Shown in pieces: positions 4,347-17,333 of a stretch of 64,000 bases of DNA. The notes beneath the pieces are model-generated. The model saw only the letters and a list, made by a program, of their open reading frames with translations. It was not told the DNA's origin and made no database searches. Source of the stretch: Escherichia phage FL38; the sequence record PP400784; one strand, written 5' to 3'. Every line of letters starts with the position of its first letter. Within the stretch, counting starts at the first letter, position 1. The position numbers and the translations under genes were made by a program.

Positions 4347-4375
4347 ATTATGCTATACACCCTCTGTTATGTCAA
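4347..4375 (-). promoter_or_regulatory. Early sigma70-type promoter cassette (PeSL-like)
   Basis: Minus strand TTGACA-17 bp-CATAAT, A-tract upstream, conserved leader CCATACCGAAACGA then SD. Confidence 0.7.
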
Positions 4376-4381
4376 CAACTT

Positions 4382-4561
4382 TTAGAACATTTTTGAAATT
4401 AATTTTGCTTTGATTTCGCAGAGAACACCTAAAGATTTCTCGTCACCCGCTTTTGCTGCTTCTGATTGCATTTTTGAAATTGCTTCAATGTCAGTGCAAT
4501 TATAAGCCGCTTGAACTTTAGCGATTGCGATGATTGCCGATTCGATGGTTAAGTGTTTCAT
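4382..4561 (-). CDS. Hypothetical small protein (59 aa), not in ORF track
   Basis: ATG with SD AGGAGAA, flanked by promoter cassettes on both sides; translation MKHLTIESAIIAIAKVQAAYNCTD... Confidence 0.5.
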   Translation of the reverse strand: MKHLTIESAIIAIAKVQAAYNCTDIEAISKMQSEAAKAGDEKSLGVLCEIKAKLISKMF

Positions 4562-4593
4562 GTTTGATTCTCCTTTCGTTTCGGTATGTGTGC

Positions 4594-4622
4594 ATTATAG
4601 GGGATCACTGATCCCCTGTCAA
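4594..4622 (-). promoter_or_regulatory. Early promoter cassette with palindromic spacer
   Basis: TTGACA-GGGGATCAGTGATCCCC-TATAAT on minus strand; spacer is a perfect 17-bp palindrome. Confidence 0.7.
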
Positions 4623-4633
4623 CAACTTTTTAG

Positions 4634-5149
4634 TTATTTTTTTAATTGCTCATCTTGCAATAGGGCAATCACATGCTGGCGATGTTCTTCCGATTGAGGA
4701 ACACCGAAAAAGTTTGTTTTGTAGAAATACTCTAATCGGTCTTCTCGTGTGCTCTCTTCCATCATGATCGCGGGTAGTCCGAGATTTCGGAAACGTCGCT
4801 TTTCTGCTGGCGTAAAATCACTGTAATACAACATAGAATCATCATTACCAGCAATGCTAAACTCATCTTTCATGAAGGAGAATATTGCGTTTAAACGCTG
4901 TTTACCGTCCACGATTTCGATCTCATAGCGAGAGCCATCATCAATCTTAGCCATTGCGATAGCACCAACAGGAAAATCATTAATCATGTTTTCGATAAAC
5001 ATACGTTTGTTTTCGGTGTCCCATACCAAAGGACGCTGATAATCTGGGTTCATGTTGATAAAGCCATCTTCTAACCACGCCTCATAAACAGAGATGACAA
5101 AGTTTTTAGTATTGGTATAGTAACGGCGTTTAGGCGTTAAACGGTTCAT
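4634..5149 (-). CDS. DUF262 / ParB-like nuclease-domain protein (171 aa)
   Basis: Motifs DYQRPLVWD and IVDGKQRLNAI typical of DUF262 (GmrSD N-terminal, ParB/Srx fold); start trimmed to ATG with SD AGGAGA abutting upstream stop. Confidence 0.55.
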   Translation of the reverse strand: MNRLTPKRRYYTNTKNFVISVYEAWLEDGFINMNPDYQRPLVWDTENKRMFIENMINDFPVGAIAMAKIDDGSRYEIEIVDGKQRLNAIFSFMKDEFSIAGNDDSMLYYSDFTPAEKRRFRNLGLPAIMMEESTREDRLEYFYKTNFFGVPQSEEHRQHVIALLQDEQLKK

Positions 5150-5150
5150 G

Positions 5151-5480
5151 TTATAGTCTCCTGAATGGATCATCACGTAAATCAATATCTTTTAAGAACT
5201 CATCCCATGAATGGCGGATATTGTTCTCAATTCTCCAGATAAGCGCAGGGATTGAACGTTCTCCCATCTGGAAGTAAGGATCATATGATCCATATGCCCA
5301 ATATGCTACGACAATTCCACAATCAGCGCAATAATATTCTATTTCACTTGCTGGCGACCAAAGTCCATCAATATGATCAGTGATCTTGCTTTCGATGTTA
5401 TGGCTATGGCAATCAGGGCAACGGATGCAATGACCTTGTTTATCGTAATTTGACGTTAGAGAATACTTAAACAATCTCAT
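5151..5480 (-). CDS. Zinc-ribbon protein (109 aa)
   Basis: Cys clusters C-IRC-PDC and YCADCG; TAATG stop/start overlap with upstream gene. Confidence 0.5.
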   Translation of the reverse strand: MRLFKYSLTSNYDKQGHCIRCPDCHSHNIESKITDHIDGLWSPASEIEYYCADCGIVVAYWAYGSYDPYFQMGERSIPALIWRIENNIRHSWDEFLKDIDLRDDPFRRL

Positions 5481-6196
5481 TATAGATCCTTATTGGCTTC
5501 AAATACTGCCTTTGCGAATCCTCGCGGCGTAAGTGACCTGATAGTCTTTGTTTTCGTTCCTTTCCCGCCTAGCTTAGAATGCTGTTTACTGTACCCTTTA
5601 TTAATCTGCAAAGGTTTCTTTTCTGGCATTATAAAGCCTTGTCCGGTCCATAAGCAAGTCTTTTTCGGGTACATATCACGGGCGGCAATATACTCAGGAA
5701 ACGTAGGATGTTTGTCATCTTCCGGCAAATAACCGCCATATTCCCACGGATGGAACATGTAATCAGGCTTACGCCACATACTAGAGATAACGCTTACAGG
5801 ATTCTCTATCATGTAGGGAACTCCTAGCCATTCACCCAAATAAGCGGTTATTTTAGCTGCCCGTACATCATGAACTTGAATCAATGGTCCTTGTTCTCGT
5901 TTCTTTCGTTCAAAGTGCGCAGCGCCACTAACAGCTAAATTGGTGCACGGTGGGAATGCAAAGATAATATCCGGTTTCCCCCATTCAAGGTCCATTGCTC
6001 TTTCCAGCCAGTTCAAATCAATCCAGGTGTTTACATAGGTAATGTTTGGATGTTCAAATCTGGTATTATACTTTTTGTATGTACCGTGGTCGGCGTCATC
6101 CGCATTAAAGCAGACTACATTATGACCTGCTTTAGCCCATTCTAGCCCCATTATCCCCGATCCGTCAAAGTTGCAGAATATTAATTTTTGTTTCAT
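5480..6196 (-). CDS. SAM-dependent methyltransferase-like protein with C5-cytosine MTase-type motifs (238 aa)
   Basis: FCNFDGSG (motif I-like), FAFPPCTNLAVSGA (PC catalytic motif IV-like), VPYMIENP (ENV motif VI-like); no obvious target-recognition domain. Confidence 0.4.
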   Translation of the reverse strand: MKQKLIFCNFDGSGIMGLEWAKAGHNVVCFNADDADHGTYKKYNTRFEHPNITYVNTWIDLNWLERAMDLEWGKPDIIFAFPPCTNLAVSGAAHFERKKREQGPLIQVHDVRAAKITAYLGEWLGVPYMIENPVSVISSMWRKPDYMFHPWEYGGYLPEDDKHPTFPEYIAARDMYPKKTCLWTGQGFIMPEKKPLQINKGYSKQHSKLGGKGTKTKTIRSLTPRGFAKAVFEANKDL

Positions 6197-6438
6197 ATAC
6201 GACCCTTTAACCCAGTACAGATTTTAGTCGGTTCTTTACCGTGCCACATTAAGTAAAGTCCGTTAATGCGACCTTGTTTTGTGTGTGATTCTTTTCTGAT
6301 CTTCTTATAGTGTCGTGCTTCCTCAACCGATTGTTTAGAATACCAATCATAAAGGAATAGGCACAAAGGCCAACCATTAGCGGCCTTAATGCAGTTATTA
6401 AGAAATTCCTTATTGCGTTTAATTAATTTTCTTTTCAC
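6193..6438 (-). CDS. Hypothetical protein (81 aa), apparent GTG start
   Basis: ORF overlaps neighbours by 4 nt at both ends (GTGA / ATGA), suggesting translational coupling. Confidence 0.4.
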   Translation of the reverse strand: MKRKLIKRNKEFLNNCIKAANGWPLCLFLYDWYSKQSVEEARHYKKIRKESHTKQGRINGLYLMWHGKEPTKICTGLKGRI

Positions 6439-6686
6439 GCTGCCCCCATTGGTTTGATAGTAACAGAATCTAAAAGACCTTTGTTAGCCAGTTCGCGGCA
6501 AGTTTTCAGATCCGCAACTTCCCAGCCAGCCGCAATCAGGTTATCAATGAGGCTGTTAGCAACTTCTTCGCTCATGAAAGAGCACTGTTTGCCTATGGTG
6601 TAGCGTACACGCTGTAATTTCAGTTTACGGAAGCCTTTAACGTTCAGGTCTTTAGCGATTTTCTTTGCGGTTTCGATGTTAGCCAT
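6435..6686 (-). CDS. Hypothetical protein (83 aa), first gene of coupled cassette
   Basis: ATG with SD AGGAGAATCA directly downstream of promoter cassette. Confidence 0.6.
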   Translation of the reverse strand: MANIETAKKIAKDLNVKGFRKLKLQRVRYTIGKQCSFMSEEVANSLIDNLIAAGWEVADLKTCRELANKGLLDSVTIKPMGAA

Positions 6687-6726
6687 TGTTTGATTCTCCT
6701 AAGTGGTATCTCGTCTTGATGGTTGT

Positions 6727-6756
6727 ATTGTAGGGGATCTCCCGATCCCCTGTCAA
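6727..6756 (-). promoter_or_regulatory. Early promoter cassette
   Basis: TTGACA-18 bp (GGGGATCGGGAGATCCCC)-TACAAT on minus strand. Confidence 0.65.
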
Positions 6757-6770
6757 CACTTTTTATAAAA

Positions 6771-6938
6771 TTATTTGTTAATTTCTGGTGCGTTGCTAGG
6801 ATAGTAACCTTCTTTAACACCCAGGTATTTCGCAACCATCCCTACAATCTTCTGTGCTACTACAATGTCAAATTTCAGATAATCTTCGCCGTGGGTTTCA
6901 ATGATATATGCTTCACATGCTGCTTTAGTCTCGAACAT
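6771..6938 (-). CDS. Small protein (55 aa), copy A of duplicated gene
   Basis: MFETKAACEAYIIETHGEDYLKFDIVVAQKIVGMVAKYLGVKEGYYPSNAPEINK; near-identical second copy at 10581..10748. Confidence 0.65.
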   Translation of the reverse strand: MFETKAACEAYIIETHGEDYLKFDIVVAQKIVGMVAKYLGVKEGYYPSNAPEINK

Positions 6939-6971
6939 TTTGATTCTCCTATTTCGTTTCGTTATGTGTGT

Positions 6972-7000
6972 ATTATAGGGGATCTCCCGATCCCCGTCAA
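6972..7000 (-). promoter_or_regulatory. Early promoter cassette
   Basis: TTGACG-17 bp-TATAAT with GGGGATC...GATCCCC arms in spacer. Confidence 0.7.
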
Positions 7001-7013
7001 CAACTTTTTAAAA

Positions 7014-7487
7014 TTAGTTGCACCAAATTCGAATGATTTCGTCTCGTTCAAATTTTTGCCAGATTACTCGGTCGCCCGCTGCCATAATACTGACAAATCC
7101 AGTTATATTTCCGGTGTACTTGCTTTTAGTTTCTGCATCATATTCAAAGAATGGAGCTTTAAGATCGCTAAACTCATCTTTTCCCACAAACTTCATAACA
7201 TGACGGTGTGCGTAATATTCGCTTCTTAGTGTTGTTGTGATAGTTCCGTCATCATTTGATTTCAGATGCAATTCGGCATCTTCATAAAGACTTGCATCTC
7301 GTTGTTTACTTTCGATACCATCATTATATGTTGATTTGGTTGCACTCCAACATTGATATGTCTTATCTACATTTTCGATCTTTTCCTGTGTCATGTCAAA
7401 AAGCGGCGCAACCTTTTTCTTAGCCGCGTGCGCAACGTTGGTCATAGACAGTGCCGCAACAACCACAATCGCAATAATTTTCTTCAT
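7014..7487 (-). CDS. Predicted secreted/periplasmic protein (157 aa)
   Basis: N-terminal signal peptide MKKIIAIVVVAALSMTNVAHA with AHA-A cleavage site. Confidence 0.6.
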   Translation of the reverse strand: MKKIIAIVVVAALSMTNVAHAAKKKVAPLFDMTQEKIENVDKTYQCWSATKSTYNDGIESKQRDASLYEDAELHLKSNDDGTITTTLRSEYYAHRHVMKFVGKDEFSDLKAPFFEYDAETKSKYTGNITGFVSIMAAGDRVIWQKFERDEIIRIWCN

Positions 7488-7548
7488 AATATCATCTCCT
7501 TTGGTTTATATGGCGGGAGTATCTTAGCAATACTCCCTTAATACTATA

Positions 7549-7830
7549 TTATTCGTGATTAGTTTCGATGTTGTGCATTTTGCACCAGTTCAGCCAATCG
7601 CCCAGATCTTGATAGTTGATGCTTTTATCTGCTGCCATCGTTTTTGTCTTGATACCCATATGTGCGTTATGAGTAAGCATTTTTACAGTGAACTCAATTT
7701 TATCGCCTTTAGCTTTAACATCAACCAGTTTGGTCCACTGGCTACCAGCGCCGCGAATGTTCATGCCAACGATGTTTCCGATGTATGCTTCTTTGTTTTT
7801 CAGGATTTCGGTTGCTTTGATGAATTTCAT
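7549..7830 (-). CDS. Hypothetical protein (93 aa)
   Basis: ORF with SD and upstream promoter cassette. Confidence 0.55.
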   Translation of the reverse strand: MKFIKATEILKNKEAYIGNIVGMNIRGAGSQWTKLVDVKAKGDKIEFTVKMLTHNAHMGIKTKTMAADKSINYQDLGDWLNWCKMHNIETNHE

Positions 7831-7863
7831 TTTTGATTCTCCAGTTCGTTTCGGTATGGGTGT

Positions 7864-7892
7864 ATTATGCTATGTTCTTACTTTGGTGTCAA
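7864..7892 (-). promoter_or_regulatory. Early promoter cassette
   Basis: TTGACA-17 bp-CATAAT on minus strand with conserved leader. Confidence 0.7.
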
Positions 7893-7902
7893 CAACTTTT
7901 TT

Positions 7903-8172
7903 TTAGATATTTTCAGAAATAAATTTTAAAACTTGACGTAAATGTTTCTCATCTTTGATGGTCGCCGGAAGTTCTTCTTTTACTTCCTGTGCAAGATAGA
8001 TATTTCCGTTCCAAGTGAAAGATCCGTCTTCGTTTACGCGATAGCTGAACATCCACTCGCAATCATTTTCGATTTCATATACACACAGAAGGGTGTAATC
8101 GTTAAAGCTATTGATTTCAATGTCGAAGCCGTGACGTTTTGCAAAGTTGGTAGTGGTTTTAGTCAGTGCCAT
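7903..8172 (-). CDS. Hypothetical protein (89 aa)
   Basis: ORF with SD AGGAGAATCA and promoter cassette. Confidence 0.55.
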   Translation of the reverse strand: MALTKTTTNFAKRHGFDIEINSFNDYTLLCVYEIENDCEWMFSYRVNEDGSFTWNGNIYLAQEVKEELPATIKDEKHLRQVLKFISENI

Positions 8173-8212
8173 TGTTTGATTCTCCTAAGTGGTATCTCGT
8201 TTCGATGGGTGT

Positions 8213-8241
8213 ATTATGCTATAGGCGTGGTCTGGTGTCAA
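8213..8241 (-). promoter_or_regulatory. Early promoter cassette
   Basis: TTGACA-17 bp-CATAAT on minus strand. Confidence 0.7.
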
Positions 8242-8261
8242 TTCTTTTTTTAATTTTATGC

Positions 8262-8292
8262 AATAAAAAAAGCCGACGCTAAGGTCGGCTAA
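8262..8292 (-). terminator. Rho-independent terminator
   Basis: GCCGAC-gctaag-GTCGGC hairpin followed by U7 on minus strand, downstream of 8298..8606. Confidence 0.7.
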
Positions 8293-8297
8293 TAAAA

Positions 8298-8606
8298 TCA
8301 TTTAGACAAATAATCATTCAGTGCAATCCGGTCGGCGTATGCTGGTGTTACGTCAATCACAATCACTTTAACGCGTGCTTTCTTGCGACCTGGGTTTTCA
8401 CGTAACCAGTGCTCATGACCGTGAACATTTTTATACTGCGATGCTTCTTCGAAGGTACGGATCGGACCTGGGTAATCAGCGTAAAGGATCTCTAGATCTT
8501 CGGTGATGTAAAAATATACATCATAATTACTGTTCTCTAGTTTAAGCAGAGACTTTCGGAACATTGGGAGATTTTCGCGGGTAAATTCAAAGATATTATC
8601 TTTCAT
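8298..8606 (-). CDS. H-x-H-W family small protein, member 1 (102 aa)
   Basis: Shares Y-I-x-D ... H-x-H-W ... V-x-V-x-V pattern (VHGHEHW) with five paralogs nearby. Confidence 0.55.
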   Translation of the reverse strand: MKDNIFEFTRENLPMFRKSLLKLENSNYDVYFYITEDLEILYADYPGPIRTFEEASQYKNVHGHEHWLRENPGRKKARVKVIVIDVTPAYADRIALNDYLSK

Positions 8607-8656
8607 AGTATTATCCTCAATAGTTGGATGAAAAGGGGCGTTAACGCCCCCATATA

Positions 8657-8944
8657 TTAAAACAGTCCTTCCTGTACACCGTAGTAGAGTTCGTCGCTGA
8701 TAATTTCATTAATGCGACGGTGTGCATATTCCTGATTTGCGAAGTTGTCAGCAAGTTCTACTTTAGTTTCGCCGTCATGTGTCCATTTAGTGATAACTTT
8801 ACCATCTGCAAATTTGAAGTTGAACTCTTTAGCTACTGCATCGCGTACCAGACGTGCAAACTTATTGTTGCGGATTGCATTGTCGGTTTCGTGTGCAGCG
8901 TGAGCAAATTTGTTAACTTTCAGAGTGATAGTGATGTATGCCAT
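8657..8944 (-). CDS. Hypothetical protein (95 aa), paralog of 11984..12295
   Basis: Shared segment R..VR.A.AKEFN.K with 11984..12295 product. Confidence 0.55.
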   Translation of the reverse strand: MAYITITLKVNKFAHAAHETDNAIRNNKFARLVRDAVAKEFNFKFADGKVITKWTHDGETKVELADNFANQEYAHRRINEIISDELYYGVQEGLF

Positions 8945-8990
8945 AATTTGATTCTCCTAGTTAGAAAGTGTATCTCGTTTCGATGGGGAT

Positions 8991-9019
8991 ATTATGCTAT
9001 ATCCCCGATCCGGTGTCAA
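8991..9019 (-). promoter_or_regulatory. Early promoter cassette
   Basis: TTGACA-17 bp-CATAAT on minus strand. Confidence 0.7.
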
Positions 9020-9025
9020 CACTTT

Positions 9026-9304
9026 TTATAAAATAATTTTTTGATATTTTTCTATGATGTTCGTGTAAGTCACCTCAACCGCTAGCACCGTTGCTTCGAA
9101 TCCACCGTTTAGCCAATGGCTATGATCATGATCGTGAAAGAAACCAAGACCAGTACGAAGACCTTCTTTATATTCGGCGCGTACATTTAGATCATCATCG
9201 ATAAACAGATAAAACCATGAATTTTTACTAGGATTGATGATACAACCTTTCAGATTAGGGAGAATATCACGACTAAGAATAAACTTATCACCTACTTTGA
9301 ACAT
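9026..9304 (-). CDS. H-x-H-W family small protein, member 2 (92 aa)
   Basis: FHDHDHSHW motif; start trimmed to ATG (MFKVGDKF) preceded by SD GTGAGGA. Confidence 0.55.
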   Translation of the reverse strand: MFKVGDKFILSRDILPNLKGCIINPSKNSWFYLFIDDDLNVRAEYKEGLRTGLGFFHDHDHSHWLNGGFEATVLAVEVTYTNIIEKYQKIIL

Positions 9305-9308
9305 AATA

Positions 9309-9629
9309 TTAGTCCTCACTTATAAGGTCAAACCAATTGTTTTTCGCATAATGCTTAATGCGTGCTTGATCTGCTTCCGCTGGTGATAGATTCCATGCAA
9401 CCACTACAACTTCTGACGCATCGTCATCCGTTTCTGATACCCAGTGATTGTGATTCATACAGTTATTTGCTATCGAGTGAGCAAATGATTTCATCACTGG
9501 AGACGTATAATCATAGTAACGGATTTTCAGATTTTCATCAACATACAAATAGATCGTATAAGGTTTATATTCAGTAACCAGTAACAGACAGTTACGCAAT
9601 TCTGGGAAAATCTTTTTAGTTAATTTCAT
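9309..9629 (-). CDS. H-x-H-W family small protein, member 3 (106 aa)
   Basis: MNHNHW motif and family pattern. Confidence 0.55.
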   Translation of the reverse strand: MKLTKKIFPELRNCLLLVTEYKPYTIYLYVDENLKIRYYDYTSPVMKSFAHSIANNCMNHNHWVSETDDDASEVVVVAWNLSPAEADQARIKHYAKNNWFDLISED

Positions 9630-9843
9630 ATTCTAGTTCTCCGTAATACACGGTAATCCATTTTTCTTCATATTTTGTATCTTTCCAGCACACAATACCG
9701 TTTACTGTGCAATCTTTGGAATTGACGAATGATTCATATTGTTCCGCATCTTCCATCATTTCATGAGCGGTCTTTTCATCGAATATATCGCAGATCGCTT
9801 TATATGCTCGATAATCTTTAAATTTGCTCATAATTAACACCAC
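9616..9843 (-). CDS. Hypothetical protein (75 aa), tandem paralog of 9834..10043
   Basis: Both begin MSKFKDY(R/K)AY and share W(K/E)(D/E)T.Y motif. Confidence 0.5.
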   Translation of the reverse strand: MVLIMSKFKDYRAYKAICDIFDEKTAHEMMEDAEQYESFVNSKDCTVNGIVCWKDTKYEEKWITVYYGELEYEIN

Positions 9844-10043
9844 TCAAGAGTTTTTGAAAACACATCTATCCATTGTTGAGTATATGCGGTTTCTTTCCAT
9901 GATACAATACCAGTCGAATAATGGTTTTTGTTTCCAGAAAAGGACGGGCATTTTGATGCATCTTCCATCATCTTTTCGGCGAACTCTGGTGCGTATACTC
10001 GCAAAATCTGTTGATATGCTTTATAATCTTTAAACTTACTCAT
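9834..10043 (-). CDS. Hypothetical protein (69 aa), tandem paralog of 9616..9843
   Basis: N-terminal MSKFKDYKAY shared with neighbour. Confidence 0.5.
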   Translation of the reverse strand: MSKFKDYKAYQQILRVYAPEFAEKMMEDASKCPSFSGNKNHYSTGIVSWKETAYTQQWIDVFSKTLEWC

Positions 10044-10324
10044 AACAACACCACCGATACATCGTAATCATTCGCGGCCTTATCGGCTTCTTCAACCGAC
10101 ATAATACCTTCTGCGACAATTGGCATAGGGTGATCGTGATTCCACCAATGGTCATGTATATCAATTTCAGTTTTGCCGGAAAATGAATCATGTTTGACGT
10201 TTTTCACTTTATACCCGATGTGACCGTCGTGGTCAATAAAGATATAGTTTCCGAAAATCGGTGTCTGTAAAATCATACCGAAAAATTTTTCTTTGTTGTT
10301 CGGGTCGAGTGTAATCATTTTCAT
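10040..10324 (-). CDS. H-x-H-W family small protein, member 4 (94 aa)
   Basis: IFIDHDG ... IHDHWWNHDH motif. Confidence 0.55.
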   Translation of the reverse strand: MKMITLDPNNKEKFFGMILQTPIFGNYIFIDHDGHIGYKVKNVKHDSFSGKTEIDIHDHWWNHDHPMPIVAEGIMSVEEADKAANDYDVSVVLL

Positions 10325-10336
10325 AATATATTCCTC

Positions 10337-10516
10337 TTAGAAAGGGATGGTCATTTCTTGAGCTTGTACATTCTCATTAGGATTAAACTTAATCCAACCG
10401 ATATTGTCTACCAGCATATGCACATTTTTATCATATCCTACGTGAGTAGTCAACACTAAATGTGCTTTACCTTCAACGATGATTTCCATGTACTTCTGAA
10501 CTTCGATAGCTTTCAT
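10337..10516 (-). CDS. Hypothetical small protein (59 aa), not in ORF track
   Basis: ATG with SD GGAGAATCA directly downstream of promoter cassette; MKAIEVQKYMEIIVEGKAHLVL... Confidence 0.45.
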   Translation of the reverse strand: MKAIEVQKYMEIIVEGKAHLVLTTHVGYDKNVHMLVDNIGWIKFNPNENVQAQEMTIPF

Positions 10517-10548
10517 TTTGATTCTCCGTTTGTTGTCTTGATGGGAGT

Positions 10549-10577
10549 ATCTTACTACTCCCTTTAATCATTGTCAA
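10549..10577 (-). promoter_or_regulatory. Early promoter cassette
   Basis: TTGACA-17 bp-TAAGAT within GGGAGTAGTAAGATACTCCC inverted repeat. Confidence 0.6.
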
Positions 10578-10580
10578 CTA

Positions 10581-10748
10581 TTATTTGTTAATTTCCGGTG
10601 CGTTGCTTGGATAGTAACCTTCTTTAACACCCAGATATTTTGCAACCATTCCGGTGATCTTCTGTGCTACTACGATATCGAATTTCAGGTAGTCTTCACC
10701 GTGGTTTGCTACAATGTATGCTTCGCATTCTGCTTTAGTCTGGAACAT
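10581..10748 (-). CDS. Small protein (55 aa), copy B of duplicated gene
   Basis: MFQTKAECEAYIVANHGEDYLKFDIVVAQKITGMVAKYLGVKEGYYPSNAPEINK; ORF-track start 10814 is an extension through the promoter. Confidence 0.65.
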   Translation of the reverse strand: MFQTKAECEAYIVANHGEDYLKFDIVVAQKITGMVAKYLGVKEGYYPSNAPEINK

Positions 10749-10782
10749 TTTTGATTCTCCTATATCTCGTTGGTATGTGTGT

Positions 10783-10811
10783 AGTATAGGGGATCTCCCG
10801 ATCCCCGTCAA
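10783..10811 (-). promoter_or_regulatory. Early promoter cassette
   Basis: TTGACG-17 bp-TATACT; near-copy of cassette at 6972..7000. Confidence 0.6.
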
Positions 10812-10819
10812 CAACTTTT

Positions 10820-11128
10820 TTATTCTTCATCTTCATTTTTATCTTTATATGCGTACTTCATAAATTTGTCTGCTACTTTGTCCGCGTTTTCAGGTTCTAC
10901 GTCTGACGCTAGGACAACAGCTAGTTCGGTTTTGTCGTTTCCATCATACCAATGATTATGAGTGTCGTTTTCTTCGATATAAAACGAATCATTTGGAGTT
11001 GTGCGACAATATACGTCTAAATTCCCATCGATATAAAAGATCCAATCCGAATACAAAATGATTGCTTTAGCCAGATTTTTATTGTCTCTTACAAAAGGTT
11101 CCGCGACAAATAGCTTAGTTTGTTCCAT
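10820..11128 (-). CDS. H-x-H-W family small protein, member 5 (about 102 aa)
   Basis: WIFYIDGNLDVY ... THNHW motif; start trimmed to MEQTKLF with SD GAGGAAA. Confidence 0.5.
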   Translation of the reverse strand: MEQTKLFVAEPFVRDNKNLAKAIILYSDWIFYIDGNLDVYCRTTPNDSFYIEENDTHNHWYDGNDKTELAVVLASDVEPENADKVADKFMKYAYKDKNEDEE

Positions 11129-11144
11129 AATATTTTCCTCAAAA

Positions 11145-11336
11145 TTATACAGCTTCGTAAACTTCCCAATGTCCAACACCAGCACGCTTAACGAAAAGGT
11201 TTTCTTTGATGTTATTCATAAACGTCTGGATAGATTTAATGCGGTTTGAAGGTTTCCATTCTTCGTTGGCATTGCGTCGATACATCATAACATTACCAGT
11301 TCGCTTATATTCAGCAACCATTTTAAGACCACACAT
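11145..11336 (-). CDS. Hypothetical protein (63 aa)
   Basis: ORF with SD GAGGA upstream of ATG. Confidence 0.45.
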   Translation of the reverse strand: MCGLKMVAEYKRTGNVMMYRRNANEEWKPSNRIKSIQTFMNNIKENLFVKRAGVGHWEVYEAV

Positions 11337-11393: not shown

Positions 11394-11714
11394 TCACACA
11401 AAATGGCGTGTCAATGCTTCTTTTGCGGTTCCGCTAAGACTTTCGATCTCGCCTGGCATAACATCAACCGCCAGAACTTCTACAACATCCTCGGACCCTA
11501 ACCAGTGAGTATGGCCTTTGTAGAACTTGATAACCAGACTACCTTCCTCATCCCATTTAACGCTATCGCTAGCCCACCACACATCACCGTCGATAAAGTT
11601 GATGTAAAGCACACTACGCCACATTGAATTAATTACTTTCAATACTGCGCCTTTCATCTCTTCCACGGTATGGTCTTCCATTTTGAAGACCTCACCTACC
11701 TGAACTTTTGCCAT
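11394..11714 (-). CDS. H-x-H-W family small protein, member 6 (106 aa)
   Basis: LYINFIDGDVWW ... KGHTHW ... VVEVLAVDV pattern. Confidence 0.55.
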   Translation of the reverse strand: MAKVQVGEVFKMEDHTVEEMKGAVLKVINSMWRSVLYINFIDGDVWWASDSVKWDEEGSLVIKFYKGHTHWLGSEDVVEVLAVDVMPGEIESLSGTAKEALTRHFV

Positions 11715-11983: not shown

Positions 11984-12295
11984 TTAAAGTTTTTCCATGA
12001 TAACGGTCATAATTACATCTTCTGCGCGAGCGGTCAGATTATCAGCGTCAGCATGTGGGCGGTTGGTTGTTACAGAGATAACACCGTTGCGCACTGGTTT
12101 GATATTGATATCAAGATGATCCGCGAAACGTTCGCCAGTTACAGAATGAATTTTGGTGTTAAATTCTTTTGCCAGTGCCTTGCGAACTTCACGAATCAGG
12201 GTAGCGTTTTTCAGTTGGTTCTCCGCGCTCATGGTCTTCTGGGTGTTCATGGTTCCGTCGAAGTCAATCATTGGCAGCGTTACGATGTATTTCAT
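11984..12295 (-). CDS. Hypothetical protein (103 aa), paralog of 8657..8944
   Basis: Shared REVRKALAKEFNTK segment; SD and promoter cassette upstream. Confidence 0.55.
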   Translation of the reverse strand: MKYIVTLPMIDFDGTMNTQKTMSAENQLKNATLIREVRKALAKEFNTKIHSVTGERFADHLDINIKPVRNGVISVTTNRPHADADNLTARAEDVIMTVIMEKL

Positions 12296-16455: not shown

Positions 16456-17333
16456 TAAAAGTCTCCGTAGTTAACCTGAAAACATTCTACACCAATTGAG
16501 CGGTACATGTCAACCACTTGATCACGGTCATCTACCGCCAACACAACATGATAACGCGGTGCAATTTCAGAGAAGAAGATCTCTTTCTTCACTTCATGAT
16601 CAGGACGACGATCATTAGTTTCACGTTGAAAGTGATCACTAGGTTCAATACCCTGTTCACGCAGCCATTGCAGAGTATCTTCTTCGCAAACATCCTCACG
16701 CCCTGAGCATGTAATGATACGATAACCATTATCACGATACAGTTTAAGCATTTCGATCACTTGCGGACGCGGTTTATCTTCTTTGACCTTTGTCCAGTCA
16801 AACGGATGACGACCGCCCTTATCCGCTAATGTTCCATCAATATCAAAGATCACTGCCTTCGGCAGCATGGTATTCGGTTTGTATACTTCTTGACCCATAT
16901 ATTCCTGCATCAGATAAAATTGGTTGCGCAAATTAGAAAGTGGAATTGCTTTCTCTCCGCGATAGAAATTACGTTTCTTTAGTGTCTCAAATGATTCATT
17001 GAACACTTGTTCAGTATACACCGCGTTAAATTCTTTTGCAAGTTCTTTGTAGAATACACGATGTTTTTCTTTCAGGTTGGTATCGGAGATAATGATACTC
17101 AATCCGCGTGATAGAGTCTCACGAGCAATCATTCTCTGAATAGACTCTACCAGCTTTTCTTTTTCCTTAGTATACTTGTATTTCAAATGTGAGTCAACAC
17201 CAAACAACATAAGACGAAGATCATCACGATTCACATTACGATAATTACTAAACCGTTTACATGTTTCCATCGCCCATGTAGTTTTACCGGACCCAGAACA
17301 ACCAACGGTTAAAATCACTTCACATTTCGGCAT
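16455..17333 (-). CDS. pseT: Polynucleotide 5'-kinase/3'-phosphatase
   Basis: P-loop GCSGSGKTTWA and HAD phosphatase motif VIFDIDGTL; start trimmed to MPKCEVILTVG aligning with T4 Pnk N-terminus. Confidence 0.9.
   Translation of the reverse strand: MPKCEVILTVGCSGSGKTTWAMETCKRFSNYRNVNRDDLRLMLFGVDSHLKYKYTKEKEKLVESIQRMIARETLSRGLSIIISDTNLKEKHRVFYKELAKEFNAVYTEQVFNESFETLKKRNFYRGEKAIPLSNLRNQFYLMQEYMGQEVYKPNTMLPKAVIFDIDGTLADKGGRHPFDWTKVKEDKPRPQVIEMLKLYRDNGYRIITCSGREDVCEEDTLQWLREQGIEPSDHFQRETNDRRPDHEVKKEIFFSEIAPRYHVVLAVDDRDQVVDMYRSIGVECFQVNYGDF

Follow-up and report, generated by a model that had tools for sequence, protein, structure and literature searches.

Within the 64,000-nucleotide stretch of Escherichia phage FL38 DNA analysed here (sequence record PP400784; the whole stretch is called the window), two open reading frames (ORFs) on the minus strand, at 6771..6938 (copy A) and 10581..10748 (copy B), encode 55-residue proteins so alike that a preliminary description of the sequence took them for the product of a recent, cassette-mediated duplication in a hyperplastic region. 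The locus raises the question of when and how such a pair arose, and why its members still resemble one another. We find that the two ORFs are most readily explained, with a probability of roughly three in four, as ancient paralogous cassettes that were copied by way of promoter-early stem-loop (PeSL) elements, have been held under purifying selection and continue to recombine.

Megablast of window positions 6400-11200 places the region in the genus Krischvirus, the RB49-like T4-type coliphages, with phi1 and GEC-3S as the top matches (89% of the query covered, at 97.7% identity). Synteny with the annotated RB49 and phi1 genomes identifies copy A as ORF191 (RB49p191, phi1p191) and copy B as ORF205 (RB49p205, phi1p205). 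The region is bordered by the equivalents of the ORF189 methyltransferase on one side and of the ORF212 HNH endonuclease and gp30 ligase on the other; it belongs to hyperplastic region 3 (HPR3) of Krischvirus, as named by Arbiol et al. 2010 (PMC2839356), who place ORFan192 in HPR3. In that paper, PeSLs mediate excision and shuffling of genes in RB49 and phi1, PeSL206/205 drives about 13,000 Miller units of lacZ, and the stem-loop of PeSL211/210 terminates transcription on a par with rrnB T1. The same paper reports that crossing-over of PeSL191/190 with PeSL195/194 gave a DNA circle with ORFs 191-194, which was sequenced from RB49 infections and phage stocks, so copy A has already been seen experimentally on a mobile PeSL mini-circle.

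Both ORFs are present where the preliminary description had put them, and their assignment rests on the ORF list, BLASTP, synteny and profile search. Each starts with ATG, carries an AGGAG Shine-Dalgarno (SD) sequence 7-8 nt upstream and keeps its 55-codon frame intact, as had been claimed. The coding sequences (CDSs) are identical at 144 of 168 nt (85.7%, in agreement with the earlier estimate of about 85%); the strong protein identity was likewise borne out, with the count corrected from about 47 to 49 of 55 residues (BLASTP E 1e-37). Pairwise alignment with flanks shows that the similarity runs through promoter, 5′ untranslated region (5′UTR) and CDS rather than being limited to the promoter element, and delimits two minus-strand units of about 241 bp, unit A at 6770..7010 and unit B at 10580..10820 (repeat family D7), in direct orientation with a start-to-start spacing of 3,810 bp. 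Homology ends on the 5′ side near 7010 and 10820, in an AT-rich tract, AAAAAGTTGTTGAC, that immediately precedes the -35 box, and on the 3′ side immediately after the stop codon (6770 and 10580). The interval between the copies (7011..10579, minus strand; delimited by BLASTN collinearity and annotations) holds 12 ORFs, the equivalents of ORF192-ORF204. Two further frames were rejected: a 77-aa ORF with a TTG start at 10581..10814, which reads through the promoter, and an antisense 168-aa ORF at 6723..7229 (plus strand), for which we found no support of any kind.

The divergence of the pair does not fit a recent origin. Copies A and B in the window differ at 24 of 168 nt, 17 of these at third codon positions, and by the Nei-Gojobori method the proportion of synonymous differences (pS) is 0.50 and that of nonsynonymous differences (pN) 0.053, with a synonymous rate (dS) of 0.83 and a ratio of nonsynonymous to synonymous rates (dN/dS) of 0.067; in codons 1-33, pS reaches 0.64 and dS about 1.5, near saturation. 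A copy-number survey in related phages, as the preliminary description had proposed, found the gene by tblastn at 116 places in 65 phage records, which tallies with two copies in 51 of 58 Krischvirus records, one copy in the other 7, and one copy in each of 7 non-Krischvirus records. In a comparison of the copies extracted from 15 Krischvirus loci and from the window, orthologues of A differ from each other by 0-6 nt (mean pS 0.077) and those of B by 0-10 nt (mean pS 0.091), against 15-28 nt (mean pS 0.498) between A and B. The copies thus cluster by genomic position and not by genome, which implies that the duplication is older than the divergence of all sampled Krischvirus. Neither mark of a recent duplicate, near-zero synonymous divergence or absence of the second copy from close relatives, is seen, and the duplication is best read as ancient, preceding the split of the sampled lineages. 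A dN/dS of about 0.07 indicates that both copies are under purifying selection, and it is under strong purifying selection that both have been retained since.

Divergence is not uniform along the CDS. With Brandy's converted copy left out, all 17 fixed differences between the A and B groups fall within nt 7-96 and none within nt 100-165, while the two parts (nt 1-99 and nt 100-165) contain 7 polymorphic columns each, a contrast with the distribution of fixed differences that is significant by Fisher's test (p = 0.0013). Mean pS in nt 1-99 is 0.008 among A copies, 0.056 among B copies and 0.625 between A and B; in nt 100-165 the corresponding values are 0.18, 0.14 and 0.31. Higher divergence within groups combined with lower divergence between them points to exchange between the paralogues in the 3′ part, not to added constraint. 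Single genomes carry traces of such exchange: polymorphic columns 117, 141 and 153 are common to both groups, the A copy of G2494 has B-typical states at nt 141 and 153, the B copy of MIZ4 has A-typical states, and the B copy of Brandy, a phage now without copy A, has A-type synonymous states at nt 51-75 on an otherwise B background. Mosaic fixed differences, shared polymorphisms and converted tracts, the marks of concerted evolution, are all present, and the comparison shows the 3′ third of the CDS to have been homogenised, in all probability by short-patch gene conversion.

Upstream of each copy, on the minus strand, lies a promoter cassette, delimited from the sequence by promoter scan and hairpin folding and, for copy B, also by alignment. 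PeSL192/191, the cassette of copy A (6939..7013), comprises a -35 box TTGACG at 7000-6995, the hairpin GGGGATCGGGAGATCCCC at 6995-6978, a -10 box TATAAT at 6977-6972 and the SD AGGAG at 6950-6946. PeSL206/205, the cassette of copy B (10749..10819), comprises TTGACG at 10811-10806, an A-type hairpin at 10806-10789, a B-type -10 box TATACT at 10788-10783, the B-type 5′UTR ACCAACGAGATAT and the SD AGGAG at 10761-10757. Downstream of the copies, and also on the minus strand, PeSL191/190 (6687..6770; promoter scan, hairpin fold and relatives) directly follows copy A, with TTGACA at 6756-6751, a hairpin at 6750-6733 and TACAAT at 6732-6727, which the promoter scan reads as TTGACA-18-TACAAT; PeSL205/204 (10517..10580; sequence, promoter scan and hairpin fold) forms the 3′ boundary of the B unit, with TTGACA at 10577-10572 and a hairpin GGGAGTA...TACTCCC that overlaps the -10 box TAAGAT at 10554-10549.

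The promoters of both copies are close to the sigma-70 consensus TTGACA-N17-TATAAT, with 11 of 12 positions matched in A (TTGACG-17-TATAAT) and 10 of 12 in B (TTGACG-17-TATACT), and in both the 17-nt spacer is occupied by the stem-loop GGGGATC-GGGA-GATCCCC. Hairpins of the PeSLs fold with minimum free energies of -14.5 to -20.7 kcal/mol (z -2.2 to -5.4), namely -14.9 kcal/mol for PeSL192/191 (z -2.9), -20.7 for PeSL191/190 (z -5.4) and -15.2 for PeSL205/204 (z -5.0). AT-rich tracts (TAATTTTAAAAAGTTG... and GAATAAAAAAGTTG...) abut the preceding stop codon. The A and B elements match the PeSL definition in every feature readable from sequence, so that the copies are PeSL-bounded cassettes in a hyperplastic region of a T4-type genome; promoter and terminator activity of the PeSL variants of this phage is predicted. 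A 79-nt direct repeat of 77% identity, 6651-6729 versus 8137-8215 (family D8), covers the 5′UTR, SD and first codons of ORF190 (6435-6686) and ORF194 (7903-8172), and PeSL-type homology there extends into N-terminal coding sequence.

The reach of the similarity into the promoter was confirmed in detail, as 6972..7000 and 10783..10811 are identical at 28 of 29 positions, the one difference lying in the -10 box (TATAAT versus TATACT). Exactly two instances of the 25-nt promoter core TTGACGGGGATCGGGAGATCCCCTA are present where shuffled sequence predicts 0, and at 6735-6756, directly downstream of copy A, the core recurs with one nucleotide inserted. The hairpins of relatives give this identity another meaning than the mark of duplication that the preliminary description had seen in it. 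In most relatives the loop of PeSL206/205 is ACC or GGT and the hairpin of PeSL191/190 is GGGGAGGATAACTCCCC, while in this phage the A-type hairpin stands in PeSL192/191, PeSL206/205 and PeSL191/190 alike, as three identical 18-nt copies. Its B promoter nevertheless keeps the B-type -10 box, 5′UTR and upstream flank. Elsewhere the A-type loop is patchy, occurring in PeSL206/205 only in E26 and in PeSL191/190 only in MIZ6, and JSE has a B-type loop within its A promoter; the stem GGGGATC/GATCCCC is common to A and B in all genomes compared. An A-type hairpin in B-type surroundings, together with its patchy presence in relatives, indicates that the promoter identity is largely due to later exchange of less than about 25 nt and is not a relic of the duplication.

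Across the compared loci, the PeSL206/205 loop (window 10789-10806) reads GGT in L002, L004, L006, L009, L014, L015 and L019 and ACC in L001, L003, L005, L010-L013 and L016; ACC is the reverse complement of GGT, and the stem is identical and palindromic. The whole PeSL206/205 hairpin appears to have been repeatedly inverted, or exchanged for an inverted copy. We raise, as a speculative idea that we consider unlikely, that the 18-nt hairpin cores are mobile by themselves, being swapped and inverted independently of flanking genes through structure-directed exchange of short patches, for instance by strand switching on a hairpin or cruciform template in replication-coupled recombination. If true, exchange of hairpin cores would keep remaking long identical repeats, and so would determine the next cassettes to undergo duplication, excision or deletion, as well as the promoters that have strength and termination properties in common.

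Relatives that lack part of the region record a second outcome of recombination between the copies. In Cognac and FL04 only one copy, a chimera, is left, and the equivalent of window 7011-10820 is missing by BLASTN collinearity; in each, the collinear BLAST segments overlap by 242 nt, the length of the repeat unit. The crossover in Cognac falls after the B-type 5′UTR and before CDS nt 7, and that in FL04 after the B-type -35 box (TTGACA) and before the A-type loop; since the crossover points differ, we count two independent deletions of the 12-14 genes between the copies. Because a chimera can form only once its two parent types have diverged, Cognac and FL04 represent losses and not the ancestral state. 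Other deletions in relatives include the absence of window 6779-7547 (ORF191 and ORF192) from JK32 and Brandy, with junctions in PeSLs, and that of window 4352-7547 from MIZ4. The 3.2-kb loss in MIZ4 comprises the ORF187-189 region, including the DNA methyltransferase, as well as ORF190, copy A and ORF192, and places an Alt-like ADP-ribosyltransferase gene near ORF193.

We propose that, before the sampled lineages split, homologous recombination within PeSL sequence placed a copy of one cassette at a second PeSL site. The cassette was probably excised in the form of a PeSL mini-circle that then entered another PeSL, a route that was proposed and partly demonstrated by Arbiol et al. (PMC2839356). 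Boundaries formed by a PeSL on the 5′ side and by the stop codon and next PeSL on the 3′ side, with dissimilar flanking genes, fit the copying of a single cassette; BLASTP found no similarity between ORF190 and ORF204, or between ORF192/193 and ORF206. Directly repeated at a distance of 3.8 kb in a phage that recombines very actively, the copies have kept interacting, with conversion shifting short tracts and hairpin cores between cassettes, which accounts for the near-identical promoters of this phage, and with reciprocal crossovers removing the intervening 12-14 genes in some relatives.

A recent intragenomic duplication, shortly before this phage was sampled, could appeal to promoter cores identical at 28 of 29 positions and to three identical 18-nt hairpins in the window, but it is scarcely tenable given a pS of 0.50 overall and 0.64 in codons 1-33, the presence of both copies in 51 of 58 Krischvirus records, the separate grouping of A and B orthologues across 15 loci, and a promoter identity that is a secondary exchange missing from most relatives; the word "recent" in the preliminary description has to be given up. 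The pair might instead be the recognisable remnant of a multi-gene block, duplicated in tandem when PeSLs on two genome copies crossed over unequally. Older paralogue sets do lie nearby (8298-8606 with 9309-9629; 9026-9319 with 9309-9629 and 11394-11714; 9616-9843 with 9834-10043), but they are not collinear with the A/B pair, and the sharp end of homology at the cassette boundaries and the unrelated flanking genes make a block duplication very improbable. For the uniform 3′ third of the CDS, constraint at the nucleotide level offers another explanation, for instance if the end of the CDS runs into the UP-element or AT-rich tract of the promoter that follows. The -35 box of that promoter is just 5 nt past the stop codon in copy B and 17 nt past it in copy A, so that UP-element positions overlap the last codons. 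Against constraint stand the higher synonymous variation within groups in the 3′ part (pS 0.14-0.18) than in the 5′ part (0.008-0.056), the polymorphic columns shared by both groups, and the B-typical states in the A copy of G2494 and A-typical states in the B copy of MIZ4, and we judge it improbable.

Two independent acquisitions would make the copies xenologues, a diverged allele having come from another phage, for instance packaged in a capsid as a PeSL mini-circle, and having entered a second PeSL. The family is indeed found, always as a single copy, in the unrelated siphoviruses swi2, SeSz-2, D10, Bas81 and Aeromonas phage Avpd1, and also on an unrelated metagenomic contig; the swi2 homologue sits in its own opposite-strand promoter-terminator unit, indicating that the gene does travel as a cassette; the 5′ part of the CDS is near synonymous saturation; and mini-circles have been put forward as vectors of horizontal gene transfer (PMC2839356). 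Set against this, A and B are closer to each other (89%) than to any other known homologue (at most 83%), both end in a C-terminal APEINK tail and have identical PeSL stems across all genomes, and no donor lineage is known in Straboviridae outside Krischvirus. We regard double acquisition as unlikely. Several points also weigh against ancient PeSL-mediated copying within the genome. What stands of the proposed cassette-mediated duplication is the paralogous pair and its setting, the duplication being an event that is not directly visible; a diverged allele captured independently from a different phage would have left an identical footprint; and PeSLs resemble one another in general, so that upstream homology is inseparable from family resemblance, the 5′UTR consensus ACACACATACCGAAACGAAA being present also at an unrelated PeSL at 4560-4631. 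The lack of fixed differences in the 3′ part is based on just 66 nt, and the single-copy genomes might be assembly collapses, which is unlikely given 14% divergence and two different junctions.

The product of the duplicated gene is a full-length match, over residues 1-55 of a 55-position profile, to phrog_8009, a family of unknown function (E 6.8e-38 for A and 1.2e-38 for B). It has no match in Pfam or NCBIfam, and a profile search of the PDB gave none at E ≤ 10. A word-indexed homologue search returned four clusters only, and an exhaustive search of 1.84 billion representative proteins returned five, including one spurious repeat protein and one chimeric ORF; the family is therefore tiny and has no annotated relative. 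A first AlphaFold model, built on six near-identical sequences, had a predicted local distance difference test score (pLDDT) of 61 and was discarded. The second, with two more distant homologues added, reached 78.9 and predicts helices at residues 5-16 and 18-39 and an extended tail; a Foldseek search of this model against the PDB and BFVD gave nothing below E = 3, and the fold hence gives no function. Conserved residues include C8, Y11, G17, Y20 and a G-Y-x-x-S-N motif (GYYPSN in all homologues but one), and the six substitutions between the A and B proteins cluster in residues 3-15 and 32. By analogy with small T4-type early proteins, we suggest with low confidence that the protein may be a small two-helix, host-directed binding factor expressed early from a very strong early promoter, and, with equally low confidence, that the second copy may provide extra dosage or a slightly different specificity. 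The homologue in the siphovirus vB_EcoS_swi2 (2170-2600 of the compared locus L007, gp36-gp35) has 72% amino acid identity; together with one other small gene it lies close to the portal and large-terminase genes, on the strand opposite to that of every neighbouring gene, in a moron-like unit with its own TTGAAG-17-TAGAAT promoter and an intrinsic terminator downstream. The genomic context of homologue P0003, on a Logan contig, is unrelated and uninformative.

Directly upstream of copy A lies another PeSL-flanked cassette, the 157-aa orthologue of RB49 ORFan192 (7014..7487, minus strand; ORF list, synteny and megablast coverage), which makes up the 11% of the megablast query without a match in phi1 and GEC-3S. 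RB49, G2494 and MIZ6 share the gene with this phage; phi1, GEC-3S and many others lack it. ORFan192 is the PeSL-flanked indel with which Arbiol et al. demonstrated mini-circles (PMC2839356). The N-terminus of the orthologue, MKKIIAIVVVAALSMTNVAHA, resembles a signal peptide, and a search of NCBIfam gave only weak matches, to the signal-peptide regions of Asr and HdeA.

Other paralogues populate the surrounding region. One set of proteins of 95-120 aa has an H-x-H-W motif in common (such as HGHEHWL, HDHSHWL, NHNHWV or GHTHWL). Four of them, encoded at 8298-8606, 9026-9319, 9309-9629 and 11394-11714, all on the minus strand, are joined by BLASTP at 27-31% identity; 10040-10324 and 10820-11185 are possible further members, recognised by eye only. 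The ORFs at 9616-9843 and 9834-10043 (minus strand) are adjacent, slightly overlapping tandem paralogues of 75 and 69 aa, with 46% identity (E 1e-19) and a common start MSKFKDY. There are hints of another dispersed paralogue family in repeat family D10 (8819-8855, 12158-12194 and 17025-17061; 68-78% identity), whose copies lie in an ORF198-like, an ORF210-like and a third ORF, around ...A(K/R)EFN...; BLASTP at E ≤ 1e-3 gave no link between 8657-8944 and 11984-12295.

The case resembles several known systems. The small accessory genes called morons, of lambdoid and siphophages, carry their own promoter and terminator between other genes, exactly as the swi2 homologue does. Morons are mostly expressed from the prophage and have no flanking family of repeated, recombinogenic promoters, whereas the promoter of A and B is an early lytic promoter and itself the recombination site. 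By analogy only, integron cassettes are also single small ORFs, which circularise on excision and insert anew at a recurring site to form arrays of accessory genes; here there is no integrase, attC or attI, every A/B-type cassette has its own promoter, and recombination is presumed to be homologous, of the phage UvsX/UvsY type, within promoter repeats. Concerted evolution of dispersed bacterial paralogues such as tuf and rrn shows the same mosaic divergence, shared polymorphisms, exchange tracts of tens of nucleotides and crossover deletions between direct repeats, although the present example is on a far smaller scale (the gene is 168 bp long and the tracts about 10-70 nt) and concerns a virulent phage with replication-coupled recombination.

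The mechanism itself is the PeSL shuffling already published for RB49 and phi1 in PMC2839356 and its 2014 sequel by Comeau et al. (PMC4122927). In these papers, the phage group, the hyperplastic region and the elements PeSL192/191, PeSL191/190 and PeSL206/205 are the same, as is the anatomy of an AT-rich tract, a sigma-70 promoter, a G/C hairpin between -35 and -10, an SD and an ORFan. The present pair is a well-documented further example that will not surprise specialists. What is added is the recognition of ORF191 and ORF205 as a genus-wide paralogous pair, the partial concerted evolution of gene and hairpins, and the natural crossover deletions. The searchable text of the two papers treats insertions, deletions and replacements between phage pairs, and has no mention of ORF191/ORF205 paralogy, no duplication or paralogue wording for genes, and nothing on gene conversion between cassettes or hairpin-core swapping; here, by contrast, a duplicate has been retained and is itself a substrate for recombination. 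A literature search by the ORF191 and ORF205 locus tags gave no match, and a broad one on Krischvirus paralogues, gene duplication and hyperplastic regions gave irrelevant papers only.

For annotation, ORF191 and ORF205 are best handled as one family. For the engineering of RB49-like therapeutic phages, the 3.8-kb interval between them is dispensable in nature, as in Cognac and FL04, with a built-in substrate for deletion on either side. For the biology of the genus, the pair adds a case in which PeSL-type shuffling has probably yielded a retained gene duplicate, beyond indels alone, and natural genomes show the fate of such a duplicate, in the form of partial concerted evolution, hairpin exchange and loss by crossover of a block of 12-14 genes.

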